This document shows, one piece after another, positions 5,676-63,599 of a stretch of 64,000 nt of DNA. A program made the translations under genes and the position numbers. The stretch's first letter is position 1; each line of letters begins with the position of its first letter. Origin of the DNA: an uncultured Syntrophobacteraceae bacterium (GTDB taxonomy: Bacteria; Desulfobacterota; Binatia; UBA9968). Below the pieces are notes generated by a model. That model was not told where the DNA came from. It made no database searches and saw only the letters and a list, made by a program, of their open reading frames with translations. The stretch spans positions 13,443-77,442 of the forward strand of contig CAZNES010000004.1 of assembly GCA_964572145.1 (NCBI GenBank), given 5' to 3'.

Positions 5676-6068
5676 GACCGATCCTCGACTTCCACCGCTG
5701 TTTGCACCAATGGTATCCTCGCCGGCCGGCGAGAAAGATTCCGGCGCTGAAAGCCGCCCAGCTTACGATCGAGGCGGCTGCCACGGCGGCGACTTTCATC
5801 TGCGCCGACAACGGCAAAAATAGAATCACGATAAAAGCCGGATAGACCAGAAAGCTCAAGATGATCAAGGCGATCCCTGCGAAGAAACGCATCGGTCTGC
5901 CGGCAGGTATGGGAGGCCTGGTCGCGTCCGGAATCTCCATGTTTCTGAAAATACCACGTTTTCCGCTTTGCGTCGCTACCGCGCTGCCGGCCGATAATTC
6001 ATCTTCCGTTGCTTGACACCGCCGCCGCCTTCGTGGTGAGCTACAGCGCGAAAAGTAAAGGAGGTCCT

Positions 6069-7388: not shown

Positions 7389-7504
7389 GAGGCGTCGGTC
7401 AGCCGGCAGCGACAAGACTCGGAGAGATCCTTCGTTTCACTCAGGATGACACTCTAAGAATGTCACTCTGAGCGATAGCGAAGAGTCTCTGCAAGATCTA
7501 TCCA

Positions 7505-9214: not shown

Positions 9215-9216
9215 CG

Positions 9217-22462: not shown

Positions 22463-23032
22463 ATGTCAATTCTCGAGGCAAAAAAATGGTATGTGGTGTA
22501 CTCCAAACCGCAGAAGGAGGAATTCGCCGAATTTTGCCTAAAGCTTAGAGGCATCGAGGTTTTTCTTCCCAAGCTTCTTTTTCCCGAATCGTCGAAAAAA
22601 CGCAAGCGGATCGTTCCTCTGTTCCCTAGCTATCTTTTTACTCGGATTTATACCCCGGAACAATATCACTGCATACTTTGGACGCCGGGTGTGAAGCGTA
22701 TCGTGAGCTTCAATGGAGCGCCCGCTCCGCTTGACGAAAGCGTCATTGAGTTTCTTAGGCAAGAGGGAACTCCGGAAGGAATCATCGCGGCCCGCTCTGA
22801 TATAAGGATGGGGCAAGAAGTGCAGATAACCGGCGGCCCTTTCGAAGGACTCGTCGGAATTATCCAGGAACCCCCTGATGCCAAAGGTAGGGTCAAGATT
22901 CTCATGAAATTGTTGAGCCGCCAGGTTAAAGTAGAGGTGCCTCTGCAATTTGTAAATTGTGGCTGGGTTGCGCAACCTTCCAAATCGATGCATTTTGATT
23001 TGGAATCGTCCGTTCCTCAGGCGAACGCCTGA
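22463..23032 (+). CDS. Specialised NusG paralog (RfaH/UpxY-like transcription antiterminator) at the 5' edge of the polysaccharide island
   Basis: NGN domain (KKWYVVYSKPQKE, PLFPSYLFTRIY) plus KOW domain (GQEVQITGGPFEGLVGIIQE...); 189 aa; this is the first gene of the low-GC island. Confidence 0.85.
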   Translation: MSILEAKKWYVVYSKPQKEEFAEFCLKLRGIEVFLPKLLFPESSKKRKRIVPLFPSYLFTRIYTPEQYHCILWTPGVKRIVSFNGAPAPLDESVIEFLRQEGTPEGIIAARSDIRMGQEVQITGGPFEGLVGIIQEPPDAKGRVKILMKLLSRQVKVEVPLQFVNCGWVAQPSKSMHFDLESSVPQANA

Positions 23033-33382: not shown

Positions 33383-34234
33383 ATGGAAGTCACGGAACCA
33401 CACCCGGCCATTGATATCCCGGTTGTTCGGATCGACGCCTTGGACAACCGGTTTTTATGGGAACTGCGGGAAATGTGGCAGCACCGGGAACTGCTGTATT
33501 TTCTCATTTGGCGTGAGGTCAAGGTACGGTATAAACAAACCGCCATCGGCATTTGGTGGGCGGTCCTTCAACCCTTCATGATGATGGTGATCTTCGCGGT
33601 CATCTTCGGTAAATTTGCGAACATTCCCTCCGACGGTTTTCCGTATCCGCTTTTTGCCTACACCGCGCTCCTCCCGTGGATATATTTTTCTCAGGCAGTC
33701 ACTCGCAGCGCCTATAGTCTCGTGGGCGACGCGAGTTTGCTCCAGAAAGTTTACTTTCCCCGCTTGATTCTCCCCTTAGCGGCGGTAATTGTGCCGCTGA
33801 TAGATTTTTTGTGTAGTGTTTTGGTGCTGCTAGGCATGCTCTTCTGGTACGGTGTAACACCGACCGCCGCCTGGCTGACCTTGCCGATTTTTTTATTCAT
33901 GGCTTTTTTGACTGCGCTTGCGGTAGGACTTTGGCTGGCGCCGCTGAATGTCCGATATCGGGACGTCAACGTCGCTATCCCCGTTTTAATTCAGTTATGG
34001 ATGTACGCTTCACCGATTGTGTATCCGACGAGCATGGTGCCGGAAAAATGGCGCTTGCTCTACAGTCTCAATCCCATGGTCGGCGTCATCAACGGGTTCC
34101 GGTGGGCTCTGCTGGGGGACGCAACGGTGAATTGGTGGCCGGTCTTAGTCAGCGTCTTGATGATCGCGCTCGTTTCGTTCGTTGGAATCATTATCTTCAG
34201 GCGCGCCGAGCCGTTTTTGGCGGATATTATCTAA
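33383..34234 (+). CDS. ABC-2 type polysaccharide export permease (Wzm), copy 1
   Basis: 6 TM; YRDVNVAIPVLIQLWMYASPIVYP ABC-2 signature. Confidence 0.85.
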   Translation: MEVTEPHPAIDIPVVRIDALDNRFLWELREMWQHRELLYFLIWREVKVRYKQTAIGIWWAVLQPFMMMVIFAVIFGKFANIPSDGFPYPLFAYTALLPWIYFSQAVTRSAYSLVGDASLLQKVYFPRLILPLAAVIVPLIDFLCSVLVLLGMLFWYGVTPTAAWLTLPIFLFMAFLTALAVGLWLAPLNVRYRDVNVAIPVLIQLWMYASPIVYPTSMVPEKWRLLYSLNPMVGVINGFRWALLGDATVNWWPVLVSVLMIALVSFVGIIIFRRAEPFLADII

Positions 34235-34253
34235 CAAAGCGCGGTCAGCTTTT

Positions 34254-35507
34254 ATGAGCGATATCGCTATTAGCGCAGAAAATCTGAGTAAGCGATACTT
34301 TATCAATGTGCCGAGGTTTCGCCACGATACCTTGCGTGATCGTATCATCGATGTGGCGAGCGGGTTGTTTTCCCGCAACGGTTATTCCTCGCCGTCCGAG
34401 GGAAGCGTCTGGGCATTGAGCCAAGTCTCCTTTGAAATAACGAAGGGACAAGTCGTCGCGGTCATCGGTCGCAACGGCGCCGGAAAAAGCACTCTGTTGA
34501 AGATACTGTCTCGTGTGACCAAGCCGACGAGCGGTTCTGCGGTGATCCACGGCCGAGTCGGATCTCTCCTGGAGGTCGGCACGGGGTTTCACCCGGAGCT
34601 GACCGGCAGAGAGAACATCTATCTAAGCGGCGCCGTCTTGGGCATGCGCAAGGCTGCTATAGAGCGACATTTCGATGAGATCGTCGATTTTTCCGGTGTG
34701 GATAAGTTCATCGACACTCCCGTAAAGCGCTACTCGAGCGGTATGTTTGTCCGGCTGGCTTTTGCCGTGGCGGCGCATCTCGATTCCGAAATCCTCATCG
34801 TCGATGAAGCGCTGGCGGTGGGCGACGCGGCGTTTCAAAAAAAATGTTTGGGAAAGATGGGGGATATAGCGAAGGGTGGAAGAACCATCTTGCTCGTCAG
34901 CCATAACATGGGATTTGTTTCCAGCCTGACTCAATCTGCCATGGTCTTGGAAAACGGCAGGCAAAAGTTCTTCGGTGATACCGCCCGAGCCGTTCCCGTG
35001 TACCTGGCGAACGTCTCAAAAAAGGAGCGGGAAAATCTATTGGAGCATGCAAACCGCGCGCCGGGCATGAGACCGGCCTTCATCTCAGCCGGTCTCAGTG
35101 ACAGCGATGGACTAGCGCGGGACATCTTCTCCACGGGCGAAGAGTGGTCTCTGGAAATGGAATATGCTTGCGTGGACGAGGTAAAACTAGCCGGCGCCGG
35201 ATTCACGATCTCGACATCCGATGGCATTCTTGTGGGCGAGTTGAATTCCTTCATGTGTTTGCCGCCCCCTCATCGAATCGCGCCAAAAGGCAAAATACGA
35301 TTTTGCATCCCCGAGCTGCCGCTGTGTCCGGGGTCTTATACCGTAAGCCTCTTTTTGGTGAAGGACGATACTTTCCGCTACGATAGTATAGATTGCGCCC
35401 TCGATTTTTCGGTCGAGAAGAACGATCCGACCGGCACGGGATTCGTCCTTACACGAGCGCATGGCCTGTGCGCGTTAAAAGGCTCCTTCCAAGATACGGA
35501 TGGATAG
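34254..35507 (+). CDS. Polysaccharide ABC exporter ATP-binding protein (Wzt) with C-terminal carbohydrate-binding-like domain, copy 1
   Basis: ATG at 34254; Walker A GRNGAGKST, signature YSSGMFVRLAF, Walker B ILIVDEALAVGD; ~150-aa C-terminal extension. Confidence 0.9.
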   Translation: MSDIAISAENLSKRYFINVPRFRHDTLRDRIIDVASGLFSRNGYSSPSEGSVWALSQVSFEITKGQVVAVIGRNGAGKSTLLKILSRVTKPTSGSAVIHGRVGSLLEVGTGFHPELTGRENIYLSGAVLGMRKAAIERHFDEIVDFSGVDKFIDTPVKRYSSGMFVRLAFAVAAHLDSEILIVDEALAVGDAAFQKKCLGKMGDIAKGGRTILLVSHNMGFVSSLTQSAMVLENGRQKFFGDTARAVPVYLANVSKKERENLLEHANRAPGMRPAFISAGLSDSDGLARDIFSTGEEWSLEMEYACVDEVKLAGAGFTISTSDGILVGELNSFMCLPPPHRIAPKGKIRFCIPELPLCPGSYTVSLFLVKDDTFRYDSIDCALDFSVEKNDPTGTGFVLTRAHGLCALKGSFQDTDG

Positions 35508-35590
35508 CGCGTTGGCGACTTAAACCCATCCACAGCCGAGCATTGCCCTAGCGGGAGATTTGAGGCAGTTCAAGTATTACGGGAGATCTG

Positions 35591-36514
35591 ATGGAAGTTA
35601 CGACTCAATCTGATGATGCTTCCAGCCGCGTGCCCGGTGAAAAGGAAACGATGTCTAGGTTCGACGTGCGCGACGAAAAACAAGAAAAGCCGGATCTGCC
35701 GAGCATTCGTATCGAGCATTCCCGCGGTTGGGTTTCGCTTCGACTCCGGGAGCTATGGGATCATCGAGAGCTTCTTTATTTCCTGGTCTGGCGTGACGTG
35801 AAAGTACGCTACAAGCAGGCGGCCCTTGGCGCCACCTGGACAGTAATCCAACCGCTGATCACGATGATGATCTTTACCGTGATCTTCAGCTATTTTGCGA
35901 AAATATCTACGGCGGGGGTGCCTTACCCGCTTTTTGTTTTCAGCGCTCTGTTGCCTTGGTACTATTTTGCGTCGGCGTTCGCCCGCGGCGGCAACAGCCT
36001 TTTGGGCGACGCCCATCTAATCGAGAAGGTTTACTTTCCGCGCTTGATTCTTCCGCTTTGCGCTGTGACCACCCCGCTGATGGATTTCTTGTTCAGTTTT
36101 GTAGTTCTGATTGGCCTGATGTTCTGGTTCGGAATCACGCCTACGTGGAACGTAATGGTCTTACCTTTTTTCGTTTGTCTAGCGTTGCTGACCGCTCTTG
36201 CAACGTGTCTTTGGCTCGCGCCTCTCAATGTCAGATACCGCGACATCGGCCACACCATCCCGTTTCTGATTCAGGTATGGATGTATGCTTCTCCGGTGGT
36301 TTATCCGGTGAGCATGATTCCGGAGCGATGGCGCTTGCTCTACAGCCTGAACCCGATGGTAGGCGTGATCGAGGGCTTCCGCTGGGCACTATTCGGCAAC
36401 AAGAGACCGGCTTTCGACTTGATGGCGGTGAGCGTCGCGATGGTGTTGCTGCTGCTTTGGGGCGGAGCGATGTTCTTTCGGCGGATGGAACGGACGTTTG
36501 CGGATATCGTATGA
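35591..36514 (+). CDS. ABC-2 type polysaccharide export permease (Wzm), copy 2
   Basis: ~65% identical to the 33383-34234 product over the core; the start may be an internal Met. Confidence 0.85.
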   Translation: MEVTTQSDDASSRVPGEKETMSRFDVRDEKQEKPDLPSIRIEHSRGWVSLRLRELWDHRELLYFLVWRDVKVRYKQAALGATWTVIQPLITMMIFTVIFSYFAKISTAGVPYPLFVFSALLPWYYFASAFARGGNSLLGDAHLIEKVYFPRLILPLCAVTTPLMDFLFSFVVLIGLMFWFGITPTWNVMVLPFFVCLALLTALATCLWLAPLNVRYRDIGHTIPFLIQVWMYASPVVYPVSMIPERWRLLYSLNPMVGVIEGFRWALFGNKRPAFDLMAVSVAMVLLLLWGGAMFFRRMERTFADIV

Positions 36515-37138
36515 TGACAGCCGACGGTCGACCGCCGACGGTAGACGGACGACGGCCGGTGAGAGACCGCCGACAGTAGACGGTCCATGGCCCTTGGTCC
36601 ATCGTCCACGGTCCGCCATCGTCAGTCCCTCGTCAACCGTCTGCGGTCAGCGGTCGGTATTTTGTTAAATGTACAAATTTGAGAAATTAGAAGTTTACCA
36701 GTTGGCTCTCCAATACACGGATATGATTTACAGCCTCACGGAAAAGCTTCCGAAGAACGAGGAACACAATCTGAAGTCTCAAATAATACGGGCCGCCACT
36801 TCGGTCGTGCTCAATATTGCCGAAGGCTCGACCGGTCAGAGTGATGCGGAGCAAAGACGGTTCCTGGGTATGGCAATTCGTTCGCTTTTGGAAACTGTAG
36901 CCTGCCAACAACTCATTGAACGTCGTCGATATGTTAACAAGGAAGAACTATCTAAGGATTACGAGTTTAGCCAGATGCTTTACGCGAAGCTCCAAGCCAT
37001 GCGTCGCTCGCTCCAAAAAAGCAGGAATGAAAAGTGAAGACCCTTATTGGCTGTCCGCCGTCGCCCATCAATGGTCAGCGATCTTCTTCATCAGTCTACC
37101 GTCCTCTGTCTACCGTCAATCGTCGTTAATTTAATACC
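36515..37138. mobile_element. Inverted-repeat-flanked cassette carrying a four-helix-bundle (23S rRNA IVS family) gene, inserted between wzm2 and wzt2
   Basis: Upstream CGACGGTAGACGG / CGACAGTAGACGG plus GACCGCCGACGG; downstream the reverse complements GTCTACCGTC (x2) and CCGCCGTCGCC; lower local GC. Confidence 0.35.
36669..37037 (+). CDS. Four-helix-bundle protein (23S rRNA intervening-sequence protein family)
   Basis: MYKFEKLEVYQLALQYTDMIYSLTEKLPKNEEHNLKSQIIRAATSVVLNIAEGS... matches the family consensus (FExLxVWQ.A..L...IY..T..FP..E.Y.L.SQ..RAA.S...NIAEG). Confidence 0.75.
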   Translation: MYKFEKLEVYQLALQYTDMIYSLTEKLPKNEEHNLKSQIIRAATSVVLNIAEGSTGQSDAEQRRFLGMAIRSLLETVACQQLIERRRYVNKEELSKDYEFSQMLYAKLQAMRRSLQKSRNEK

Positions 37139-38479
37139 ATGAGCGACATTGCCATCAGAGTCGAGAATCTCTCCAAGCAGTATAAAATCGGAGTGGCCCA
37201 GTACCGTCACGATTCCATACGGGATCATCTGACGGAGTGGGTTAAGTCGCTGTTCGTTCGCAATGGCACTCCCTCTCCCTCAACTCTCGTCACTGAACCC
37301 TCCGCTCTTGGCCCTCAGGCCTCAGCGCCCAGCGGTCATCCGTCTTCGGTCGACGGTCGTTCAGATACCATTTGGGCCCTCAAGGATGTCTCGTTCGAAG
37401 TCAAGCAGGGCGAAGTAATCGGCATCATCGGTCGCAACGGCTCAGGAAAAAGCACGCTGCTCAAGATTCTCTCCCGCATCACCGAACCGACCAGCGGTTT
37501 TGTCGACATTCACGGGCGGGCAGGCTCCCTGCTGGAAGTCGGCACAGGCTTTCACCGCGATCTTACCGGGAGGGAAAATATCTATCTCAACGGCGCTATT
37601 CTGGGAATGAAGAAGGCGGAGATTGAGCGTAAATTCGACGAGATCGTTGATTTCTCGGGGGTGGAGAAGTTCATTGACACGCCGGTCAAGCGATATTCGA
37701 GCGGCATGAACGTACGCCTGGCTTTCGCGGTTGCGGCTCATTTGGACCCGGAGATTCTAATCTTGGACGAGGTGCTGGCCGTCGGCGACGCCGATTTTCA
37801 GAAGAAGTGCCTGGGCAAGATGGGCGATGTAGCCAAGGAAGGTCGAACGGTCTTGTTCGTCAGTCATAATGCTGTGGCAATAAAGAATCTGTGTCACAAA
37901 GGTATCATGCTCGAAGGGGGCACAATTGCATTCAATGGCCAAGCGGAAGACGCCGTGGATTTTTATCTTGAGAGCGTAGAGAAAAAAGAGCAGATTTGCA
38001 GATCCCCTGTGGTTGATCTGAGCAAGGCTCCGGGAAGGCGCGCCGGCTTCGCTCCGTTACTACAACGGCTCGAGCTTGTCACGGAAGGCGACCGGCCCGT
38101 AACAGACGGTCTGCCGGTCGGCGCTTCGTTAACGGCGCGGATACATTTTCGGTTAGAAAAACCCGCCTCGAACGTTCACACGAACATCGCGTTCGACAAC
38201 CTCTTTGGACAACGAATCTTTCATGCCCACAGCGGTTATGATGCCGATTACCAACAAGTGACGCGGGTAGGTGACCAAAGATGTATATGTGAGATCCCCT
38301 GTCTTAATCTGATTCCTGGGGAGTACAAGATTAAAGTAGGGCTCGATATCGACGGTGCTCCTGGGGACGGTGTAGAAGATGCCGTCCGTCTTAGGATTTT
38401 TGAGTCTGATTTTTACGGCACTGGAAAAATTCCACGGAGCGGTACGTTCGTTATGAAGCATTACTGGCGCTTCATCTAA
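37139..38479 (+). CDS. Polysaccharide ABC exporter ATP-binding protein (Wzt) with C-terminal carbohydrate-binding-like domain, copy 2
   Basis: Walker A GRNGSGKST, signature YSSGMNVRLAF, Walker B ILILDEVLAVGD; C-terminal domain divergent from copy 1. Confidence 0.9.
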   Translation: MSDIAIRVENLSKQYKIGVAQYRHDSIRDHLTEWVKSLFVRNGTPSPSTLVTEPSALGPQASAPSGHPSSVDGRSDTIWALKDVSFEVKQGEVIGIIGRNGSGKSTLLKILSRITEPTSGFVDIHGRAGSLLEVGTGFHRDLTGRENIYLNGAILGMKKAEIERKFDEIVDFSGVEKFIDTPVKRYSSGMNVRLAFAVAAHLDPEILILDEVLAVGDADFQKKCLGKMGDVAKEGRTVLFVSHNAVAIKNLCHKGIMLEGGTIAFNGQAEDAVDFYLESVEKKEQICRSPVVDLSKAPGRRAGFAPLLQRLELVTEGDRPVTDGLPVGASLTARIHFRLEKPASNVHTNIAFDNLFGQRIFHAHSGYDADYQQVTRVGDQRCICEIPCLNLIPGEYKIKVGLDIDGAPGDGVEDAVRLRIFESDFYGTGKIPRSGTFVMKHYWRFI

Positions 38480-38519: not shown

Positions 38520-39572
38520 GTGAACCAAAAAATATTACTCATTGGTCTCGGCGGGTTTGGCCGAAATCATCTTCGCGCATGGCACGAAATGGGTATGGGA
38601 GACAATCTCTTTGTGGCCGAGCTCAATTCAGAGCGGCACCGAGAGTGTCGATTGGTTGGGATGCCCGAAGAGAGAATCACCACAGATTATCGCACCGTGC
38701 TGGATCGAGTGGACGTGGTGGATGTAGTGACTCCCTCCACCAGCCATTTTGAAATCTGCAAGGCGGCACTGTTGGCGGGAAAAGATGTTTTCGTAGAAAA
38801 GCCCATGACGATGACTTCGAAAGAAGCCGTCGATTTGGCCAATCTCGTTGTAGAGACGCGACGTATCCTTCAAGTGGGCTATTATTACCGCTTCCATCCT
38901 ATCTCTCAGTATTTGAAGGAGAGGATCCGTGCCGGAGCGTTGGGAGACCTGAGATACCTGTCTGGCAATTTCATGGGGTTTAAACGAGCGCGAACGGATG
39001 TAGGCGTTACTCACACGGATGGTATTCACTTTCTCGATCTATTCAACTGGTTCGCGGGCGGACTTCCAGAGCAAGTTTATGCTGAAACGCGGGACCATTT
39101 CGGGCGTGGAATGGAGGACTGGTCTCTGGTCGTGCTGCGTTATCGGGACGGAACGGTTGCAAAGGTTGAATGCGGTTATATTCAGCCCGGCAGATGGCAC
39201 GATAAAGTAGTGCCGAATGCTATGACGACAAAAGAAATTTTTGTCTGTGGAACTAAGGCCACCGTCGAGGCCGATTTCGAAACCGAGAATTTCGTGGTCC
39301 ACGATGTACGTCACGAATTTCAGCAAAACACTTGGGTTCCTGTAGGAAGCGGAAGCCAACTGCCCCAGGTAGGCACGGCAACACCCATTCAAATGATTTG
39401 TGCCGAGCTGCGCGCGTTCCTGGAATGCGTGGCTTCCAGAGGACGTCCTGGCAGTAACGTGATCGGCAGCGGCGTCGTACTGGCGAAGGTGATGGAAGCC
39501 ATTTATGAGTCGGCCCGGCAAAACAGGCCGATCACGCTGCAATGGACAGCCGAGGAAGCGAAAAGCCTTTAA
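38520..39572 (+). CDS. Gfo/Idh/MocA-family NAD(P)-dependent oxidoreductase
   Basis: GTG start; N-terminal LLIGLGGFGRNHL Rossmann motif; EKP motif (VFVEKPMT). Confidence 0.8.
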   Translation: MNQKILLIGLGGFGRNHLRAWHEMGMGDNLFVAELNSERHRECRLVGMPEERITTDYRTVLDRVDVVDVVTPSTSHFEICKAALLAGKDVFVEKPMTMTSKEAVDLANLVVETRRILQVGYYYRFHPISQYLKERIRAGALGDLRYLSGNFMGFKRARTDVGVTHTDGIHFLDLFNWFAGGLPEQVYAETRDHFGRGMEDWSLVVLRYRDGTVAKVECGYIQPGRWHDKVVPNAMTTKEIFVCGTKATVEADFETENFVVHDVRHEFQQNTWVPVGSGSQLPQVGTATPIQMICAELRAFLECVASRGRPGSNVIGSGVVLAKVMEAIYESARQNRPITLQWTAEEAKSL

Positions 39573-39584
39573 GGAAAGCAGACG

Positions 39585-40448
39585 ATGAAAGATATCACGG
39601 ACGGCGATCTTAAAGACCGCATTCCACTAGCTGCAAAAAAAAACGAGAGCCATCGCTCAACCATCAAGGTAGGTGGAGTGGTTATCGGAGGGGAGCGGGT
39701 CGTGGTCATGGCGGGACCGTGCGCGGTGGAAAGCCAGGAGCAGGTGCTTGAGATCGCTCATCGTGTTAAAGCTGCTGGCGCAGCGGTTCTTCGGGGTGGC
39801 GCGTACAAGCCTCTAACTTTCCCGTATCGCACGGATAGCTCTTTCGAGCTGCGGGAGCTTGGGCTCAAGTACCTTGCTGAGGCCGGCAAAGCCGCCGGTT
39901 TGCCCGTGGTCACCGAGGTTATGGACCTACGCCTAGTGGAGACCGTAGCAGAATTCGCAGATATCCTCCAGATTGGCGCACGCAACATGCAGAACTTCCC
40001 TCTATTGGAGGAAGTAGCCAAAACCAGGAAGCCGGTGATGCTCAAGCGTCACTTTGGGTGCAGCTTGCGGGACTGGCTAGGAGCAGCCGAGTATATCCTC
40101 TATGGCGGAAATCCTAATGTGATCCTCTGTGAGCGCGGTGTGGTCGCGCCCCATACCCACGCCGTCGCCTCGAGGTTCATTGTGGACATTCAGGCGGTAC
40201 CCGCGGTTAAAGAGTATTCGCACCTTCCGGTCATCGTCGATCCCAGTCACTCCACCTTCAAACGCAGCTATGTTGCTCCCGTCGCCCGTGCTGCGATAGC
40301 TGCCGGCGCAGACGGAATCATCATAGACGTACATCCCGTTCCCGAAAAGGCGGCGGTCGATCCGCTTCAGGCGCTCTCCTACGAAAGCTTCTCCGGCTTG
40401 ATGCAGGAGCTTCGCGGCATAGCTCGTGTGATGGGTCGGAATATCTGA
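39585..40448 (+). CDS. 3-deoxy-7-phosphoheptulonate (DAHP) synthase class I-beta-like PEP aldolase with altered phosphate-binding motif
   Basis: [58 protein letters not shown] all match DAHPS-I-beta/KDO8PS-superfamily motifs; the canonical KPRTS is replaced by KPLTF (39807-39821). Confidence 0.8.
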
Positions 40449-40457: not shown

Positions 40458-41567
40458 ATGCTGGATGAACTTCAATCATACTTGAGTAATCGCCTTGATC
40501 CTTTAACCGGTACGCACAAGTGGGTCGCGGGTATTATCGGCGATCACCCGTCCCAATACGCCAAGAGCCCATCGTTGTGGAACCAAGCTTTTACGACGTT
40601 AGGGCTCGACGGGATTTTCCTTCCGTTCGATGTGGATGCCCCGAATCTCCGCTCCTTGCTGGAGATCTTGCGCCAGAGCGAACACGTCGTCGGTTTCAGT
40701 GTGACGGTTCCTTACAAGGTAGAAGTAATTAAGTTCCTCGACGATCTGGACCAGAAGGCGCGTCAGATCGGCGCCGTCAACACGGTGGCGCGAACTCAGG
40801 ACGGAAAACTTGTAGGCTACAACACCGATGGTCAAGGGTTTCTGGACATGCTGACCAAGCCGCTGCCCCGTCAGCAATGTCCATTCTTTGAAAAATTAGA
40901 GGGACGGCATGCATTGTTGATTGGAGCAGGCGGCGCCGCCAGAGCCGTAGCTTTCTTCCTGGCCGAAGCCCTCGGAGATAAGGGTCGTCTTACGATTGCC
41001 AATCGCGATTCCAATAAGGCCCGAGAGCTGGTCAACGCCGTGAAGGATACGAATTCTTCTAATGTGGACTACATCGCCGAGACGGATATCCACGGAACGG
41101 TCTCAACCTTAGACCTGATTATCAATGCCACTACCAAGGGCCAGAGTGGAGTCCGAAGGCTGGTTGGGAATCGAGCGACGTGCCTGGAGCCCTATTCTGC
41201 CTTGGCGCCTGCGAACCCCGTCGAGCTTGATGGGGAATCATTTTCCAGCGAGTCTGCGTTCTACCGTTCCTGGTATCAGCAGTCCTACCCAGACATAGAG
41301 ACCAACGTTCGTCTAGCCAATAAGATTTTGACGGCGACACCGATGAATACTGCCTTTGTCGATCTTATTTATTCACCCCTGGAGACGCGGACACTCGCGA
41401 TGGCTCGTTGGAGTGGTCACCGAGTCTTGAACGGGAGAGAGATGAATGTCCGTCAGGCAGCCGACGCCTTTGTCAACCGTGTCATGAGTCCCTACTTAAC
41501 CGCGATGGGATGGGATCTGCGGAGTACTTATCGACGCGTCTCTGAGATTATGGGCCAAGTTTGGTAA
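40458..41567 (+). CDS. Shikimate dehydrogenase (AroE)-family NAD(P)-dependent dehydrogenase with ~100-aa C-terminal extension
   Basis: AKSPSLWN, SVTVPYK (catalytic Lys), GYNTDGQG (catalytic Asp), LLIGAGGAARAV, DLIINATTKG motifs. Confidence 0.8.
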   Translation: MLDELQSYLSNRLDPLTGTHKWVAGIIGDHPSQYAKSPSLWNQAFTTLGLDGIFLPFDVDAPNLRSLLEILRQSEHVVGFSVTVPYKVEVIKFLDDLDQKARQIGAVNTVARTQDGKLVGYNTDGQGFLDMLTKPLPRQQCPFFEKLEGRHALLIGAGGAARAVAFFLAEALGDKGRLTIANRDSNKARELVNAVKDTNSSNVDYIAETDIHGTVSTLDLIINATTKGQSGVRRLVGNRATCLEPYSALAPANPVELDGESFSSESAFYRSWYQQSYPDIETNVRLANKILTATPMNTAFVDLIYSPLETRTLAMARWSGHRVLNGREMNVRQAADAFVNRVMSPYLTAMGWDLRSTYRRVSEIMGQVW

Positions 41568-42607
41568 GGGAATTCATAACCCACATGCAAAGTCTCGACA
41601 GGATCCATAAGAAACCCACTGTCGTGGCGGCTTTGGAAAGCAACCACAACGGAGACCTATCTCTAGCCAAGCGGATGGTGGATATAGCAGTTGACTGCGG
41701 ATGCGACGCAATTAAGATCCCGGTGCGGCGGGTCAAAGAATGCTACACGGAAGAAACGCTTCAACAGCCCAACTACAAGCATCCCGAGCTCGGCGCTACC
41801 TACGGCGATGCCTTAGAGAGATTGGAACTAAAAGCGGACGCTTTGCGCTCCGTTCGCGATCATTGCAGAGGACGCATCTCCTTCATCGGCGCTCCGTATG
41901 ACTTGTCTTCGATGGACTTGCTCGGAGATCTAGACGTGGATGGCTACCAGATTGATCCGCCGTTGCTTTGCCACCAACCGTTAGTTCAAGCGATAGCCGA
42001 TCGGCAAAAAAAAGTTCTGGTGTGTGTCGGCATGTGCTCGGAGCAAGAACTCGCGGCGGCACTACAGATTCTGAAGAACGTGCCCGTTATCCTGCTCCAC
42101 TGCGTTATGGCCAAATCTCTTCGCCTGGAGGATACCGCGCTCGACTATATTCCTTACCTGCGTCGGCGTTTTGGATGCGAGATAGGATACCTGGGATTTG
42201 AGGACGGCATTCATGCCGCGCTAACGGCCTACACGATCGGCGCGACGACTATTGAGAAGATATTCACAATCGATCGCCATCTGCCCGGCCCTGGACGCGC
42301 CAATAGCCTCGACCGAGAAGAACTCAGGGCTCTGGTTCAGGGTTTAGTGGCATTGGAATCCTCGCTCAAGCCCTCCGGTCCCCGCCAGCTCCTTCCCGTG
42401 GAGTTGGAGACATTCACCGATGAACGGTGCTCAGTCGTAGCCGCTCGTCCTCTAAAGGCGGGCACTACCATTCAAGCTGATATGCTTACGGTTAAGGCGG
42501 CGCTCAATGGAGTCAGTCCCCAGTTGCTCTCTTGGCTGGAGGGCAAGCGGTTGCTTTTCGACTTGCCGTTAGACGCGCCGATTACCTTCGGGGTCGTGGA
42601 TCTGTGA
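41561..42607 (+). CDS. NeuB-family nonulosonic/ulosonic acid synthase (PEP-dependent) with C-terminal SAF domain
   Basis: NHNGDLSLAKRMVDIAVDCGCDAIK NeuB signature; C-terminal SAF/antifreeze-like domain. Confidence 0.8.
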   Translation: MVREFITHMQSLDRIHKKPTVVAALESNHNGDLSLAKRMVDIAVDCGCDAIKIPVRRVKECYTEETLQQPNYKHPELGATYGDALERLELKADALRSVRDHCRGRISFIGAPYDLSSMDLLGDLDVDGYQIDPPLLCHQPLVQAIADRQKKVLVCVGMCSEQELAAALQILKNVPVILLHCVMAKSLRLEDTALDYIPYLRRRFGCEIGYLGFEDGIHAALTAYTIGATTIEKIFTIDRHLPGPGRANSLDREELRALVQGLVALESSLKPSGPRQLLPVELETFTDERCSVVAARPLKAGTTIQADMLTVKAALNGVSPQLLSWLEGKRLLFDLPLDAPITFGVVDL

Positions 42608-43281
42608 TTTCTGTAGTTATCCGCACCAAGAATGAGGAACGGTGGCTCCGGCGATGTCTCACGGCCGTGGCGCTTCAGACATATCGTCCTCTGGAAGTTA
42701 TCGTGGTGGATAATGCCTCTACCGACGGCACCGTCGGTATCGCCAAGGAGTTCGGATGTCGCATCCTTTCAATCGATGACTGCGATTTCAGTTTCGGACG
42801 CGCCCTCAACCAAGGTATTGCAGTTGCAGAAGGAGAATTGATCGCTATTCTCTCCGGCCATTGCATTCCGTTGAATGAAAGATGGCTCTCCTGCCTCGCC
42901 GCGTCGTTCGCGGATGAGCTGGTGGCGGGTGTCTATGGGCGGCAGGAACCGTTGCCCGATAGCGATCCTTTCGACAAACGGGATCTATGGACGACCTTCG
43001 GCCTCGAGCGGCGCGTGCAAACCCGAGACATTTTTTTTCACAATGCAAATTCCAGCATCCTGCGGCGCGTGTGGAACGAGGTCCCTTTCGACGAAGAAAT
43101 TTCCGGCGTGGAGGACCGCGATTGGGCGAAAAAAGTCCTAGGAAGAGGTTACAAGATTATTTATGAGCCCAGCGCCAGCGTGTATCACCATCATGGTATT
43201 CACCAGGGCCGGAATGTGGAGCGGGCCGAACGTGTCGTACGGGTCATCGAACTGATCAACAATGGGGGAAGAAAAGAGTGA
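42604..43281 (+). CDS. Glycosyltransferase family 2
   Basis: GTG start overlapping the neuB-like stop; ISVVIRTKNE...VIVVDNASTDGT...DCD GT-A motifs. Confidence 0.7.
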   Translation: MISVVIRTKNEERWLRRCLTAVALQTYRPLEVIVVDNASTDGTVGIAKEFGCRILSIDDCDFSFGRALNQGIAVAEGELIAILSGHCIPLNERWLSCLAASFADELVAGVYGRQEPLPDSDPFDKRDLWTTFGLERRVQTRDIFFHNANSSILRRVWNEVPFDEEISGVEDRDWAKKVLGRGYKIIYEPSASVYHHHGIHQGRNVERAERVVRVIELINNGGRKE

Positions 43282-43985
43282 CTGAGAGATCTCATGTCGT
43301 ATGCATCATCCCAGCTCGGGGGGGATCAAAAGGGCTTCCGCGAAAGAATGTTTGCAGGCTCGCAGGGAAACCGCTGATCGCTTACTCCGTCGAGGCCGCT
43401 CGAAAGTGCCCGCTGATTGATCGAGTCATCGTTTCTACGGACGACGAGGAGATCGCTGATATTGCCAGATCCTATGGAGCTCAGGTGCCTTTCAAGCGGC
43501 CGGCTGAGTTGGCCGTCGATGACGCCACGACGGAAAGCGTCCTCCAGCACGCGGTGCGCTGGTTGGAAGAAAATGAAAAGTATTCGGTTGATATCGTGGT
43601 CTTTCTCCAGGCCACCGACATTTTTCGCAAGCAATGGATGCTGAACGAGGTGGTTCAACGAGTGTTGAGGGACTCTACCATTGACTCTGCCTTCGTCGCG
43701 TTCGAGACGCACAAAAACTTCTGGCGCATTGTCGACAAGCAGCCAGTTCGGTTGGCGGACATACCTTATGGAGCACGTCAAAAGCGCGAGCACGTGTACC
43801 GGGAGGATACGGGCATAGCTTGTGCCACCAGGGCAGAGTTTATCAAGCAGGGAAAAAGATTGGGTCCGCGGGTTTCTATTGTGGCTAATACCGATGCCGC
43901 CTCCTTTATCGATATTGAGGATGAATTTACGTTCTGGCTTGCGGAGCAGGTGCTGTTGAGCGGGAAGCGGACGGTGAATGACTAA
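43278..43985 (+). CDS. Acylneuraminate/ulosonate cytidylyltransferase (NeuA/KdsB family), copy 1
   Basis: IIPARGGSKGLPRKN signature; 4-nt overlap with the upstream gene. Confidence 0.8.
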   Translation: MTERSHVVCIIPARGGSKGLPRKNVCRLAGKPLIAYSVEAARKCPLIDRVIVSTDDEEIADIARSYGAQVPFKRPAELAVDDATTESVLQHAVRWLEENEKYSVDIVVFLQATDIFRKQWMLNEVVQRVLRDSTIDSAFVAFETHKNFWRIVDKQPVRLADIPYGARQKREHVYREDTGIACATRAEFIKQGKRLGPRVSIVANTDAASFIDIEDEFTFWLAEQVLLSGKRTVND

Positions 43986-44719
43986 TGAGTGAGAGAATTA
44001 TCGCTATCATTCCCATCCGGGGCTCGGACGATGAATTCAAAGAGAGTCCCAGCCCTATGCTGGGGGAAAGGCCTCTCGTAGAGTACACCCTTTTAGCGGC
44101 GAAGGAGGCTCGGCTTCTGGACCGGGTGATTGTGTCCACCGACAGCGAGGCGGTAGCTGACTTCTGCCGGCGATATGGGGTTGAAGTTCCCTTCATCAGG
44201 CCAGCTTCGCTAGCCGAACCGACCGCTACCGTTACGGATGTTTTACTTCACTGCGTTGAATGGCTGGAGAGCAATGAGCACGATCACCCCGACTGGGTCA
44301 TCAAGTTGGAAATCACTCATCCTTTCAGGCCGACGGGCATCATCGATACCCTGATCAAGACCGCGCTGATGCAGAATGTGGATTCGGCTTTCCTCGCCTA
44401 TGAGGAAGTTCATGGCTTTTGGACTCTGGATCATGACGGCAGTCCCCGACTGGTAGGCGAGGAGGGGAATCTTCCCAGAAAAACCCGCAAGCCTTTTTAT
44501 AGAGACTCAAGCGGGCTAGTCGCGATGACTCGCGTGGCCAATCTCAAAGCAGGCAAGCTCTATGGTAACAATCTTGGACTGATTCCGTTTCGGGACCTCT
44601 TTGCCATCGTCGATACGCACGAAGGCGCCGGTTCATCCTATCGGGAACGAATGGGATTTCGGCTCGGCGAAATCCTTGCAGCTGAATTTAACAAAACTGT
44701 TTCCTGGAAGGGAAAATGA
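43985..44719 (+). CDS. NeuA/KdsB-family cytidylyltransferase paralog with divergent N-terminal nucleotide-binding loop, copy 2
   Basis: IAIIPIRGSDDEFKESPSPMLGERPL replaces the PARGGSKG loop; the rest aligns with copy 1 (DRVIVSTD..., VDSAFLAYE). Confidence 0.6.
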   Translation: MSERIIAIIPIRGSDDEFKESPSPMLGERPLVEYTLLAAKEARLLDRVIVSTDSEAVADFCRRYGVEVPFIRPASLAEPTATVTDVLLHCVEWLESNEHDHPDWVIKLEITHPFRPTGIIDTLIKTALMQNVDSAFLAYEEVHGFWTLDHDGSPRLVGEEGNLPRKTRKPFYRDSSGLVAMTRVANLKAGKLYGNNLGLIPFRDLFAIVDTHEGAGSSYRERMGFRLGEILAAEFNKTVSWKGK

Positions 44720-58835: not shown

Positions 58836-61800
58836 ATGCTCGAACCGACAGGGAACACGGCCAAAATCTTATTGCTGTCTTTGGCTGTTCTCTGTCTCGG
58901 TATCAGCGCCGGCATGGCAGCCCAGACTGATCCTGCTGTGGTAGGGCGGTGGTCTTCCGTGCCGGATTTGCCCTTCTACCCCGTACACCTCCATGTGCTT
59001 CCCACGGGCGAGGTGATGATTTGGCCAGGGGATGGAGGGATTTCTGGTAACGACCCACGGCTCTGGGATCCGGTCACGCAGGCCACCACCCCTTTGGCCA
59101 AGCCTGGCTATGATGTTTTCTGTTCCGGCCATTCCTTCCTGGCAGACGGCCAATTATTCGTCGCAGGCGGACACATTATAAATAACGTTGGGCTTCCGAA
59201 GGCGAGCGCCTATAATCCATTCACGGATACCTGGACTGCTCTGCCTAACATGAACGCAGGACGTTGGTATCCTACAAGCACCACATTGGCGAACGGCGAC
59301 GCGTTGGTAGTCTCCGGGAGTATTGATACAACCGTGGGCGCTAATCCGCTGCCCCAGGTTTTCCAGGTAACGACCGGCACTTGGCGTGACCTCACGAATG
59401 CGCAACTGAGCATGGATCTATACCCGCGGATGCACGTGGCGCCAAACGGCAAGGTGTTCAATTCCAGCCCGACTACAGTCACACGCTACCTCGACACCTC
59501 TGGGACCGAAGCCTGGACGGCGGTGGCCAATCGCAGTCTCTTCCGGGACTTCGGATCGTCTGTGTTGTATGACGATGGGAAAATCTTGATCATGGGCGGC
59601 GGAGACCCACCCACTAAAACAGCCGAGGTCATCGATCTGAACGCGGCGTCTCCCGCCTGGAGGTCCGTGGCTTCGATGGCCAACGCCCGCCGACAACTGA
59701 ACGCTACGATCCTGCCGGACGGCAAGGTGCTGGTGACCGGCGGCACTAGCGGGCCGGGGTTCAACAACGCCAGCTTTCCCGTCTATGCCGCTGAAATGTG
59801 GGACCCGGCGACCGAGCTATGGACAACGATGACCAGTGCCCAGATTCCGCGGCTCTATCACTCGGCTGCTGCCCTGCTGCCTGACGGGCGCCTTATCAGC
59901 ACCGGAGGAAATGGCTACCCACAAACGGAGGTCTACGAGCCGCCGTATTTATTCAAGGGAGCTCGGCCCGGGATCACTTCGGCGCCCGCGGGCGTGGCCT
60001 ACGGGGACACGTTCTTCGTGCAGACGCCGGATGCCGCCGGCATCACGCAGGTTACCTGGATACGGCTCCCCTCGGTGACACATGCGTTCAATACGGAGCA
60101 ACGGATCAACCGTTTGAGTTTTTCGCAGACAGCGGGGGGGTTAAACGTAGTGGCGCCCTCTAACCCGAACCTGGCTCCGGTAGGGTATTACATGCTGTTC
60201 ATCCTCAACAGTGCCGGCGTGCCGTCGGTCGCTCAAATCGTACGAATCAATACCGCACCACCTGGACCGGCTCCCGTTCCCACGTTGAGTTCGCTGTCGC
60301 CGAACAGCGCGATCGCAGGCGCTTCAGCCTTTGCCCTAACGGTCAACGGGAGCAACTTCATTGTTGGGTCGATGGTGCAGTGGAATGGGACGGCGCGGCC
60401 CACCACGTTTGTGAGCGCCACGCAGTTGACCGCGGTAATCTCGGCCAATGACCTGGCGGTGGCGGGCGCAGCTTCGGTAGCGGTGGTGAATCCCGCGCCG
60501 GGAGGGGGCGCCTCGAATGCGCTCATCTTCGTAATCAATCAGGCCAGCGTCACGGCAGGGCTGGTGGCCGCCTACGGCTTCGATGAAGGATCGGGCACGA
60601 CGGTGGGAGACTCGTCGGGCAACGGCCACAGCGGCGTCATTTCCGGGACGACGTGGACGACGAGTGGAAAATATGGGAACGCCCTCTCGTTTAACGGCAC
60701 AAATAGTTATGTGAGCGTTGCAAATCCAAATCTTCCCACCGGCGACTACACCTGGTCAGCCTGGATCAATCCCAATCAGACCAGTACCTTTCGGGGAATC
60801 ATGGTCTCCCACGGTACCGGTCCCGGGCAACTAGAAATGGACATAGACTCTGGCCGTGTCGTCATTTACACCAACGACAGCCAACGAATCGTGAGCGCTA
60901 CGATAATTTCCACCGGTGTATGGACTCATCTCGCTCTTTCGCGTGCGGGGAGCACGATCAGGTTATACCTCAATGGAAATCAGGATCCGAATACCGGAAC
61001 AGACGCTGCGGCGCAAAATTTTCAAGGGTGTCCCTTGTTGATAGGCGTGGACAATGATTCCGGCTGCACTGGAAGCCTAAACGGATTTTTTGACGGCCGC
61101 ATTGATGAAGTGCGGATCTACAGCCGTGCGCTGAGTCAGGCAGAGATCCAGAGTTACATGAACACACCGATCACTCCGCCGGGGCCTGACACCACACCGC
61201 CGGACACAAACATCACGGCTACTCCCGCGAACCCGAGCAACAGCAGCAGCGCAAGCTTCAGCTTTACCTCCACCGAGGCAGGCAGCAGCTTTGAGTGTCA
61301 GTTGGACGGGGGAAGCTTTGGCGCCTGCACGAGTCCCAAGAGCTACACCAGTTTGGGCGACGGGAGTCATATCTTCTACGTGCGCGCTATTGACGTTGCC
61401 GGAAACGTTGATCCGACGCCGGCGAGCTACACGTGGACGAGCGATGTTAGCTCTCCTACCATCACCATTACCTCCCCAACTTTGAATCCGACGTATACGA
61501 CCGGCAGCAGCCCGCTGAGTCTTGGTGGGACCGCGAGCGACAACAATGGGGTGACACAGGTCACATGGGCTAACGATCGGGGTGGGAGCGGGACGGCCAG
61601 CGGGACGGCGAGCTGGAGCGCGAGCGGCATAATTCTTCAAAGCGGGACCAACGTTCTTACGGTGATGGCGCGCGATGCAGCCGGCAATACGGGAACGGAC
61701 GCTCTTACCGTGAGTTATACACCACCGCCCCCGCCGCCCGACACGACGCCGCCGGACACGAGCATAACATCTTCACCGAGCAATCCGAGCAGCAGCGCGA

Positions 61801-63599
61801 GCGCGAGCTTTAGTTTTACTTCCACCGAGGCGGGGAGTTTTGAATGTAAAATGGACGCCGGCAGTTTTGTGAGCTGCGCGAGCCCTCAGAGCTACAGTAA
61901 CTTGGGGAACGGAAGTCATACCTTCCAGGTGCGGGTTACTGACTTGGCCGGTAACGTCGATCCGACGCCGGCGAGCTACACATGGACGATTGATGTCACA
62001 GTAGTCACGACAGGGCTCGTGGCCGCCTTTGGCTTCGATGAAGGATCAGGCACGACGGTGGGAGACTCGTCGGGGAACGGATACACGGGCAACATTATCG
62101 GCGCGGCGTGGACGGCGAGCGGAAAGTTTGGCAACGCCCTCTCCTTTAACGGGACGAGCAGTTACGTGAGCGCTTCGATCCCTACCCTTCCCACCGGTGA
62201 CTATACCTGGTCGTCGTGGGTGAATCCCAATCAAACTGGCACCTTTCGGGGGATTATGGTCTCCCGCGGGAGCGGTCTCGGGGGAGTAGAACTGGATATA
62301 GACGCTGGTCGTATCAACGTTTGGTCCAACGGCAACCTAGGATTAATAAGCGGTACAATAATCCCTGTTGGCGTATGGACACACGTGGCTCTCACGCGTG
62401 CGGGGAGCACGATCAGGTTATATATCAACGGGAGTCAGGATCCGAATACCGGAGCGGATGGGCTTGCTAACGATTTCGCGGGCTGTCCACTGTTGATCGG
62501 TGTCGATAATGACAGCGGCTGCACTGGAAGCCTAAACGGAAATTTTGACGGCCTCATTGATGAAATTCGGGTCTACAATCGGGCGCTGAGTCAGGCAGAG
62601 ATTCAGAGTTACATGAACACACCGGTCACTCCGGTGGGGCCCGACACCACACCGCCGGAGACGAGCATCACAGCCGCTCCCGCCAATCCGAGCAACAGCA
62701 GCAGCGCAAGCTTCAGCTTTACCTCCACCGAGGCAGGGAGCAGTTTTGAATGTCAGTTGGACGGGGGAAGCTTTGGCGCCTGCACGAGTCCCAAGAGCTA
62801 CACCGGTCTGGGAGAGGGCAGCCACACCTTCCAGGTGCGGGCCATTGATTCGGTCAGTAACATCGACCCGACGCCAGCAAGTTATACGTGGACGATTGAT
62901 AGCACGCCACCGGACACGACCCTTACAGCGACCCCGCCGAATCCGAGCAACAACGGCAATGCCAGCTTCAGCTTTACGTCCCCGGAGTCGAGCGTCGGTT
63001 TTCAATGCCAGTTGGATGGCGCTGCCTTTGCTGCCTGCACAAGCCCGAAGAGCTATACCGCTCTGGCGAGCGGCAGCCACATTTTTCAGGTGCGAGCCGT
63101 CGATGCGGCGGGAAACGTCGACCCCATCCCGGCAAGCTATACTTGGACTTATACGCCAATCACTCGCTTCCCGGCTGCCACGACAATAGAAACTGGAACG
63201 CTGTTGGCAGGCACTGCCACTAGTCTCAACGCCGACGACAACAATTATTATCAGGTCAACTCCACCTCGTCGGGCACCCGCACCACATCATGGTACGGCA
63301 TTTTCACCAGCGTGCCGAGCAACCTCAGCAAACTGAAGGTGAGCTACAAGGGCAAGAACTCGCAAAGCTGCACTCAGACGATCGCCATATGGCGCTGGAC
63401 TGATAGCACGTGGGTGCAGCTCGACTCGCGCAGTGTGAGCACCACCGAGGTTTCGATTGCCAACCTTGTTCCGGCAGGCGCGGCCGGCCAATACGTCAAC
63501 GGCGCCACCGGGGAGCTTCGGGTAAGAATCCGCTGCACGCGCTCGGGTAACTTCACCACCAGCGGCGATCTGATGAATATAGTCTACGATACCCCGTAG
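58836..63599 (+). CDS. Secreted 1,587-aa multidomain protein: galactose-oxidase/glyoxal-oxidase-like Kelch propeller + E-set domain, IPT/TIG, 2x LamG-like lectin domains, 5x Cys-containing Ig-like domains, C-terminal beta-sandwich domain
   Basis: Signal peptide; Kelch-like propeller plus DUF1929-like region (residues ~30-470); LamG motifs ([23 protein letters not shown]...[20 protein letters not shown]) twice; repeated ...[56 protein letters not shown]. Confidence 0.8.
60560..62890 (+). repeat. Recent internal tandem duplication of a ~1.45-kb module (LamG + Ig-like domains) within the giant gene
   Basis: 60560-61140 vs 62010-62580 are about 80-85% identical; 61140-61350 vs 62580-62790 are about 90% identical by eye. 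Confidence 0.6.

Follow-up and report, generated by a model that had tools for sequence, protein, structure and literature searches.

What does a type Iβ synthase of DAHP, the 7-phosphate of 3-deoxy-D-arabino-heptulosonate, condense with phosphoenolpyruvate (PEP) when the clamp for the phosphate of erythrose 4-phosphate (E4P) has been replaced? This question is raised by a gene in a 64,000-nucleotide stretch of DNA, here called the window, from an uncultured Syntrophobacteraceae bacterium (assembly GCA_964572145.1, contig CAZNES010000004.1, positions 13,443 to 77,442 of the forward strand). The gene encodes a 287-residue protein related to DAHP synthases (DAHPS), in which KPLTF stands where KPRTS is expected. 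From its active-site residues and its gene context, we put at roughly 65% the probability that this protein is a glycan 3-deoxy-2-ulosonic acid synthase and not the DAHP synthase of the aromatic pathway. The sequence data are best explained by descent from a type Iβ DAHP synthase that was retooled for a different aldehyde.

KPLTF replaces the phosphate clamp of type Iβ DAHP synthases

Direct reading of the forward strand gives the codons aag cct cta act ttc at 39807-39821, corresponding to K75-P-L77-T-F79. In HMMER alignments, the 11-residue stretch that contains them aligns directly with GGAFKPRTSPY of solved Iβ DAHP synthases, and the T. maritima/P. furiosus chimera (4grs) likewise places KPRTS on KPLTF, so the substitution named in the original prediction is exact. 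The closest solved relatives are the enzymes of A. pernix (1vs1, 4e-79), P. furiosus (1zco) and T. maritima (1rzm), with 3-deoxy-manno-octulosonate 8-phosphate (KDO8P) synthases (KDO8PS) giving much weaker matches (~1e-24). There is no KPR elsewhere in the 287 residues, which answers the concern that the equivalent loop might lie at another position. A paper on an Iβ DAHPS names Arg and Thr of KPRT as the residues that bind E4P in the T. maritima complex, and also lists the PEP and metal ligands (PMC6362186). The Arg of this clamp is lost in the KPLTF protein, and the Ser that follows is now Phe. The gene and its active-site elements, all on the forward strand, are as follows.

39585-40448, forward: putative DAHPS-Iβ-derived PEP:aldose condensing enzyme, 287 residues (PF00793, 1.5e-63; about 50% identity to solved Iβ DAHPS)
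39720-39722, forward: Cys46, metal ligand in GPCAVES, conserved in alignments
39807-39821, forward: KPLTF in place of the KPRTS clamp, with K75 and T78 kept, Arg to L77 and Ser to F79
39822-39854, forward: rest of the β2-α2 loop, 11 residues with a 3-residue insertion relative to canonical PYSFQG-L
40050-40070, forward: β5-α5 loop HFGCSLR, with H156 for Gly and the subfamily-invariant R162
40149-40160, forward: PHTH, at the end of the β6-α6 insertion (3 residues), with H190 for the Arg of ERGIR and H192 for Phe
40248-40259, forward: DPSH, with metal ligand H222 kept and followed by F225 for Gly
40326-40328, forward: D248 (in IIDVHP) in place of the metal-ligand Glu, a trait of the Nitrospira-type subclade only
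40356-40367, forward: V258-D259-P260-L261, with the metal- and aldose-binding Asp kept and its flanks altered relative to S-D-G-x

The altered motif marks a conserved subfamily

Among the 120 closest database homologues (near set, at least 69% identity), 117 carry KPLTF, two KPMTF and one KPITF. A wider search used one representative per 50%-identity cluster of ~15 billion proteins; the best 150 matches comprised 111 with KPRTS, 16 with KPRSS and a handful with KP(L/A/C)TF accompanied by the PHTH insertion. A profile built from these distant variants found 115 new sequences (far set), with KPLTF in 103, KPCTF in 6, KPATF in 4, and KPTTF and KPRTF in one each. Nearly all of them have PHTH, 104 have LKRH and 113 an N-terminal KD(I/V/L)(S/T). 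The fourth metal-site position separates the two sets, with D-VHP in 118/120 near homologues and Glu in 111/115 far-clade sequences.

To locate specificity-determining positions, 241 subfamily members were compared with 126 canonical sequences. KPR followed by T/S and then S/G/N/A occurs in none of the 241, nearly all of which have KP(L/C/A)TF, with KPRTF in one; the clamp Arg is present in 126/126 canonical relatives. Some 18-20 positions are specific to the subfamily. They include (brackets show which residue canonical enzymes have there, and how often) L77 (Arg, 100%), F79 (Ser, 97%), H156 (Gly, 92%), D163 (Glu, 94%), H190 (Arg, 90%), H192 (Phe, 87%) and F225 (Gly, 99%), and further G158, S160, R162, G166, the P189 insertion, S196, Q203, V258, P260, L261, K2, D3 and D8. 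Because the motif is kept in hundreds of sequences from independent assemblies, KPLTF is, as judged from these comparisons, a conserved subfamily trait and neither a chance mutation nor a sequencing error.

In neighbour-joining trees, one split sets all KPxTF/PHTH variants apart from the other sequences, with a bootstrap of 55/100 when 11 variants are included and 95/100 with 50; the near, Nitrospira-type clade has 100/100. The subfamily and its gene module were found in Nitrospirota, Patescibacteria, one Chloroflexota protein and marine metagenomes. A genome-contig scan with the generic GARNMQNF pattern returned canonical DAHPS only (73 of 80 with KPRTS, 7 with KPRSS, KPRTG or KPRSN), and these 80 loci served as a control set. 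In metagenome-assembled genomes of Nitrospirota (L010, L012, L026, L043), a canonical KPRTS enzyme with 51-53% identity exists as a separate protein. In plasmids and phages, tblastn found only canonical aroF-type genes (<60% identity) and no variant, and in viral contigs the KPLTFPY DNA pattern gave 5 matches, all by chance in non-coding frames. Full-text literature searches yielded no description of the KPxTF/PHTH subfamily or its gene module. The original prediction had named many bona fide DAHP synthases with KPLTF as contrary evidence: carriers are many, none is a demonstrated DAHPS, and they form a separate lineage.

A retained catalytic core lies within a remodelled active site

The remaining active-site blocks had been described as intact. 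This holds for the blocks listed at the time (26 residues), all of which are present; it does not extend to the whole active site, where several further changes were found. Ten residues, three of them inserted, stand where canonical enzymes have ERGI-RTFE, with His190 in place of the canonical Arg and His192 in place of Phe. In addition, LKRG becomes LKRH (H156), DPSHxxG becomes DPSHSTF (F225) and SDG near the metal-binding Asp becomes VDPL, as seen in alignments that include one of 12 sequences. Three extra residues immediately follow KPLTFPY relative to the canonical enzymes.

The residues expected to bind PEP, and three of the four expected to bind metal, are by comparison preserved. An alignment of subfamily sequences diverging to ~40% identity contains 43 invariant columns, among them the PEP ligands R70, K75, A132/R133, K154 and R184 and the metal ligands C46, H222 and D259, which make up three quarters of the metal site. 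R162, which is rare in canonical enzymes, is also invariant in this alignment, and H156 is found in at least 90% of the subfamily. Since the PEP ligands and these three metal ligands are invariant across such divergence, they argue for a working catalyst. Together with the loss of the clamp Arg and Ser, this pattern agrees with the earlier proposal of a competent PEP aldolase whose aldehyde would not be held by the E4P phosphate clamp.

From an alignment of 96 subfamily sequences, AlphaFold2 gave a model with a confidence (pLDDT) of 92.9 and a pTM of 0.92; its lowest-confidence stretches are residues 71-90, containing the KPLTF loop (pLDDT ~75), and 181-200, containing the PHTH loop. Foldseek superposes the model on 1vs1 with TM-scores, by query and by target length, of 0.88 and 0.94, respectively (root-mean-square deviation 1.9 Å), and on KDO8PS with a TM-score of ~0.78. 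The subfamily-specific positions lie mostly just after the predicted β2, β5, β6, β7 and β8 strands. The N-terminal MKDI(T/S)xxDL (window 39585-39611), in which K2, D3 and D8 never vary, is a subfamily-specific motif that canonical Iβ DAHPS lack; a short helix is modelled at residues 6-12 in this region.

The gene belongs to a probable CMP-sugar module

In the window, the KPLTF gene is the second member of a cassette of seven. The other six, all on the forward strand, are the following.

38520-39572, forward: Gfo/Idh/MocA oxidoreductase, directly upstream (Pfam)
40458-41567, forward: AroE-like oxidoreductase of the shikimate dehydrogenase family, directly downstream (Pfam Shikimate_dh_N/Shikimate_DH)
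41561-42607, forward: NeuB-like synthase with SAF domain (PF03102, 8e-47, plus SAF), an addition typical of the Nitrospira-type cassette
42532-43281, forward: small glycosyltransferase family 2 (GT2) protein (PF00535, 2.9e-23), true start probably near 42600
43278-43985, forward: cytidylyltransferase CT1, NeuA/PseF-like (PF02348), predicted CMP-activating enzyme of the module
43985-44719, forward: CT2, divergent second cytidylyltransferase-like protein (PF02348, 5e-12), 36% identical to CT1

The Gfo protein has only weak matches, to UDP-GlcNAc 3-dehydrogenase (NCBIfam, 108 bits), PDB 7bvj, DgpA and inositol dehydrogenases. The AroE-like protein falls below every NCBIfam AroE cut-off. Both the Lys (SVTVPYK) and the Asp (YNTDG) that serve catalysis in shikimate dehydrogenase are retained; Ala takes the place of the first Ser that binds carboxylate, and ~70 residues are inserted. 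Its family includes a sugar ketoreductase, 5-ketofructose reductase (7cok). The NeuB-like protein lies below the NeuB and PseI cut-offs and matches NeuB, SiaC and PseI structures in the PDB at 1.5e-23 to ~3e-19, and is, by these matches, a divergent NeuB/PseI relative. CT1 matches NeuA in the PDB at 2.7e-29 and KdsB at 5e-9.

The order Gfo, DAHPS-like, AroE-like, NeuB-like, GT2, cytidylyltransferase, cytidylyltransferase is conserved in six other loci (L001, L002, L004, L087, L088, L089). In one of them, the complete genome of Nitrospira sp. Kam-Ns4a (L004), FlgK, flagellin, CsrA and FliW are encoded a few genes upstream of the cassette, and methyltransferases and then a large Maf/MptE-like protein come after it, a layout typical of flagellin glycosylation regions. 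In another (L087), a WaaA-like gene of the Kdo transferase family follows the cytidylyltransferases. The picture is alike in two loci with distant subfamily members. In a patescibacterial locus (L090), the DAHPS-like gene sits within a glycan cluster; a radical-SAM gene adjoins it on one side, and directly after it comes a cytidylyltransferase sharing 60% identity with CT1 of the window. In L091, a legionaminic-acid-like cluster surrounds it, and a cytidylyltransferase, GT2 and Gfo precede it.

An unbiased scan of metagenomes for DNA that codes for (Y/F)KPLTFPY gave at least 120 loci, with the gene present in 104 of those listed and at least 3.5 kb on both sides in 16 of the matches listed. 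Across the 104 loci, whose contigs are often short, the partners were Gfo (71), AroE-like (70), cytidylyltransferase (53) and small GT2 (46), and more rarely radical SAM (13) and NeuB-like (10). Short-chain dehydrogenase/reductase-type epimerases or dehydratases were found in 24 and DegT aminotransferases in 12. All 16 well-flanked loci contain a cytidylyltransferase (CTP_transf_3) within 5 kb, with GT2 and Gfo in 14 each, AroE-like in 13 and NeuB-like in 4. Cytidylyltransferase, GT2, Gfo, DAHPS-like, AroE-like is the commonest order among the listed loci. Asp at the metal site tracks the NeuB-like neighbour, which is present in 5 of 7 Asp loci versus 2 of 75 Glu loci among the matches listed (L092-L211).

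Apart from the divergent AroE-like gene, no aro gene was seen in the loci inspected, where the context was always that of glycans or CMP-sugars. The annotated neighbourhoods contained no dehydroquinate synthase or dehydroquinate dehydratase, and likewise no haloacid dehalogenase (HAD)-type phosphatase or sugar-phosphate isomerase. The suggestion of a sugar-acid rather than an aromatic pathway thus finds support in the neighbourhoods, including the cytidylyltransferase of every well-flanked locus.

Several variations accompany the module. GT2 is fused to a divergent CTP_transf_3 domain (~450 residues) in L101 (2825-4198), L155 (7418-8773) and L138 (1544-2887), a Rosetta-stone link that would connect the GT2 (42532) and CT2 (43985) of the window if, as we infer, CT2 is the counterpart of the fused domain. 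In L133 (11467-13416), a cytidylyltransferase-like domain is fused to a D-2-hydroxyacid dehydrogenase. A flavin mononucleotide-dependent 2-hydroxyacid dehydrogenase (PF01070) occurs in 19 of the 104 listed loci, and lies directly upstream of the cytidylyltransferase in L091 (6370-7425), L116 (6589-7632), L147 (6092-7126) and L211 (7108-8085). Pyruvate-kinase-like, ATP-sulfurylase and adenylylsulfate (APS)-kinase genes adjoin the module in two unrelated loci, L088 (13828-16565) and L091 (10882-14729); the arrangement hints that the glycan is sulfated and that a pyruvate-kinase-like enzyme acts alongside PEP-using synthases.

Comparison with known enzyme families

The protein resembles Iβ DAHP synthases in its (β/α)8 fold (TM-score 0.84-0.89 by query length), in 47-55% identity and in having no regulatory domain. 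It also has the same PEP-binding residues (the Arg of LRGG, Lys of KPR, Arg of GAR, Lys of LKR and Arg of ERG) and the Cys/His/Asp metal ligands. It differs in KPLTF for KPRTS, in the PHTH insertion that replaces the ERGIR Arg, in KRH for KRG and DPSHxxF for DPSHxxG, in Asp for the metal Glu within the near subclade, in the N-terminal MKDI(T/S)xxDL and in its home in a CMP-sugar/glycan module. Far-clade members fail the TIGR01361 cut-off, with scores of 263.9, 243.9 and 219.5 against 267.75. Although the window protein itself exceeds the NCBIfam DAHPS cut-offs, we would not file it as a DAHP synthase, because both the E4P clamp and the association with the aromatic pathway appear to be lacking.

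KdsA belongs to the same superfamily and uses the same chemistry, and its product is also activated with CMP by a CTP_transf_3 enzyme and put into surface glycans. Identity to KdsA is only ~28-30%, and scores against the KDO8PS families are far below their cut-offs (111.9 against 314 for TIGR01362; 107.8 against 242 for NF003543). KdsA, moreover, has the KANRS motif, binds arabinose 5-phosphate and works with the isomerase KdsD and the phosphatase KdsC, neither of which is found in the KPLTF module. Extra DAHPS copies recruited to specialised clusters are known from BagF/FevY (NF041229), which the KPLTF protein resembles in that respect; it differs in its glycan context and scores 281 against a cut-off of 700. 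Secondary-metabolism paralogues of the BagF/FevY type keep E4P as substrate and feed aromatic products.

The functional analogy is closest to NeuB, PseI and LegI, which condense PEP with a non-phosphorylated aldose to an ulosonic acid that is activated by a NeuA-like enzyme, in flagellin or polysaccharide loci. By function, the KPLTF protein would thus most resemble NeuB-type synthases, yet it stands outside their family: PF03102 matches with only 26.5 bits over part of the barrel, there is no SAF domain and the metal site is of the Cys-containing DAHPS type. The open reading frame (ORF) two genes downstream (41561-42607), unlike it, has both the NeuB barrel and SAF. The conserved core and the consistent pairing with a cytidylyltransferase point to a new glycan-associated subfamily of α-carboxyketose (PEP:aldose) synthases.

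Proposed reaction and pathway

In the reaction that we propose, PEP would be bound as in DAHPS through R70, K75, A132/R133, K154 and R184, and a divalent metal on C46, H222, D248 and D259 would polarise the carbonyl of an open-chain aldose. Attack by C3 of PEP, addition of water to C2 and loss of phosphate would then yield a 3-deoxy-2-ulosonic acid, which the adjacent NeuA-like CT1 may convert to a CMP-sugar.

With distinctly less confidence than we attach to the ulosonic-acid assignment itself, we suggest that the partner aldose is non-phosphorylated and neutral. A neutral aldose is favoured because a Leu/Phe/Phe/His-rich pocket has taken the place of the clamp Arg and Ser and the Arg of ERGIR, and because no phosphatase is conserved in the module. 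Our leading guess for the substrate is a 6-deoxy or other hydrophobic-tailed sugar released from a nucleotide sugar. A NeuC-like UDP-GlcNAc 2-epimerase, seen in L089, L090 and L091, was considered as a general supplier of the aldose and set aside, with Epimerase_2 in only 2-4 of the 104 listed metagenome loci.

The remaining members of the module can be accommodated in a scheme like that for nonulosonic acids. A cytidylyltransferase-like domain would make a nucleotide sugar, Gfo and/or the AroE-like enzyme would edit it by redox chemistry, GT2 would hydrolyse it to the free aldose (as PseG does), the KPLTF enzyme would add PEP and CT1 would activate the product. The two dehydrogenases would in this way tune the stereochemistry or oxidation state of the precursor or, alternatively, of the ulosonate in its pyranose form, a near isostere of quinate on which the AroE-like enzyme might act. 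The small GT2 and its cytidylyltransferase-like partner may prepare and release the free aldose, or may instead transfer the sugar. In the window, the CMP-sugar would feed the surrounding ABC-transporter-dependent exopolysaccharide (EPS) locus, and the same cassette would serve flagellin glycosylation in Nitrospira sp. Kam-Ns4a.

A broader proposal, which we advance tentatively and hold at slightly less than even odds, is that the KPxTF/PHTH proteins form a previously unrecognised class of DAHPS-derived ulosonic-acid synthases. They would work in a self-contained and largely NeuB-independent pathway with a NeuA-like cytidylyltransferase, GT2 (alone or joined to a cytidylyltransferase), Gfo and the AroE-like enzyme. 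The products would be undescribed CMP-activated sugar acids of 7 to 9 carbons, on polysaccharides and flagella of Nitrospirota, Patescibacteria and abundant marine bacteria.

Alternative explanations

Several observations weigh against a glycan ulosonic-acid synthase. The protein is ~50% identical to proven DAHP synthases and exceeds NCBIfam DAHPS cut-offs (NF006421, 366 against 335; TIGR01361, 317.2 against 267.75). The clamp Thr78 is retained, and R162, H156, H190 and H192, joined by R82 in the subclade, might offer a shifted site for a phosphate or carboxylate. The neighbouring gene is an AroE homologue, and by sequence alone a shikimate-type role of the KPLTF protein is conceivable. The Nitrospira-type cassette also includes a NeuB-like synthase, for which the proposed pathway does not account. 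Finally, the bootstrap for a single KPxTF/PHTH clade drops to 26/100 when the 18 signature columns are left out, indicating that the grouping leans partly on the signature residues and the shared indel.

The first of these observations would also fit a genuine DAHP synthase, which is unlikely in our judgement but survives better than the other alternatives. In such an enzyme, the E4P phosphate would be held by relocated residues (R162, the His cluster, R82) and the DAHP sent to a non-aromatic fate; for example, dephosphorylated 3-deoxy-arabino-heptulosonate might be modified by the AroE-like neighbour and activated with CMP as a 7-carbon acid. Apart from the overall identity and the family scores, it is favoured by the invariance of K75, P76, T78 and D259, which contact the E4P head, by the presence of new invariant Arg and His residues and by the AroE-like gene adjacent in 13 of the 16 well-flanked loci. 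Microbial surveys, moreover, report modified ulosonic acids with 7 carbons (PMC8157484). Against it, essentially no member keeps the clamp Arg or the Arg of ERGIR, the Ser is exchanged for a bulky hydrophobic residue, no phosphatase is conserved in the module, and the far-clade members fall below all DAHPS cut-offs. Neither dehydroquinate synthase nor dehydroquinate dehydratase accompanies the gene in the loci inspected.

Still less probable is a condensation of PEP with a longer phosphorylated sugar, such as a hexose 6-phosphate giving a nonulosonate 9-phosphate, on the model of the animal Neu5Ac-9-P and Bacteroides Kdn-9-P synthases. The phosphate site would have moved outward, and dephosphorylation would precede CMP activation. 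The replaced inner clamp, the Arg and His residues that have appeared in the segments following the predicted β5 and β6 strands and the NeuA-like character of CT1 are all in keeping with such an enzyme. An HD-domain putative phosphohydrolase (DUF6817/HD_4) just after CT2 in the window, L001 and L002 could be cited for the dephosphorylation step, but it is absent from L004, L087, L088, L090 and L091 and, by a seed search, from the 104 listed metagenome loci. No HAD phosphatase was seen, nor is there a conserved kinase or isomerase that would handle such a substrate. A DAHPS paralogue that has degenerated or lost catalysis (a pseudoenzyme or scaffold), or else a local sequence artefact, might account for the loss of two canonical substrate-binding residues and for the Glu-to-Asp change in the subclade, but is very improbable given the 43 invariant columns that include all PEP and three metal ligands down to ~40% identity, the occurrence of the motif in hundreds of sequences from independent assemblies, the tight operon-like gene order and the confident AlphaFold2 model.

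We also considered, and discarded, the idea that the DAHPS-like and NeuB-like enzymes act in series to give an acid of more than nine carbons like that reported in Magnetospirillum. No link between the two was found, the ulosonic acid would offer no free aldehyde to the second enzyme, and the NeuB-like gene is missing from 12 of the 16 well-flanked loci.

Consequences for annotation and ulosonic-acid surveys

In sum of its properties, the KPLTF enzyme appears to be widespread, consistently misannotated and a likely route to an undescribed bacterial sugar acid. Near-clade members are named '3-deoxy-7-phosphoheptulonate synthase' at NCBI, and the subfamily bears the same name at JGI (P0005, P0078, P0287 and P0312 checked); far-clade members are called 'N-acetylneuraminate synthase family protein' at NCBI. 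If a glycan ulosonic-acid synthase is the correct assignment, current annotation wrongly credits genomes, including those of reduced Patescibacteria, with the entry step of the aromatic pathway, so that metabolic reconstructions would err on that step and overlook the glycan pathway.

The subfamily would also represent a natural experiment in switching the aldose specificity of the DAHPS/KDO8PS scaffold, a matter approached until now mostly through mutants in KPRS and KANRS. In mass-spectrometric surveys, many ulosonic acids with 7 to 10 carbons are left unassigned (PMC8157484; bioRxiv 10.64898/2026.04.20.719630). The module may provide a genetic handle for some of these, including surface structures of wastewater-treatment nitrifiers.

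The surrounding locus

The cassette lies inside an EPS locus (22000-58000) that is encoded on a single strand and has a low GC content (0.47-0.55, versus 0.57-0.62 in the flanks). The locus starts with a NusG-like paralogue (22463-23032) and an AAA_22 ATPase, followed by Poly_export, Wzz/GNVR, a ParA-like ATPase, Bac_transf, a DUF3473 deacetylase and a FemAB-like protein. It resembles EPS loci of the PEP-CTERM/exosortase type, with no exosortase seen in it. Upstream of the cassette are two tandem Wzm/Wzt ABC polysaccharide exporter pairs (33383-38479), and an ORF of 122 residues from the '23S rRNA intervening sequence protein' family (36669-37037, PF05635) lies between the permease and ATPase genes of the second pair. 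After the cassette come genes for an HD/DUF6817 protein, a 2-oxoglutarate-Fe(II) oxygenase, a weak MptE-like match, a methyltransferase and a pyruvyl transferase, and further downstream glycosyltransferases, an epimerase and DegT.

Close behind the downstream end of the EPS locus, an ORF of 1587 residues (58836-63599) combines a kelch propeller of the glyoxal/galactose-oxidase type with two concanavalin-like LamG and several Ig-like domains; its product could be a secreted carbohydrate-oxidising or carbohydrate-binding protein. Elsewhere in the window, 2435-3757 and 6009-10293 hold unrelated genes for a Rieske/LigXa-like oxygenase and a complete ABC importer with solute-binding protein, permease and an ATPase carrying TOBE.

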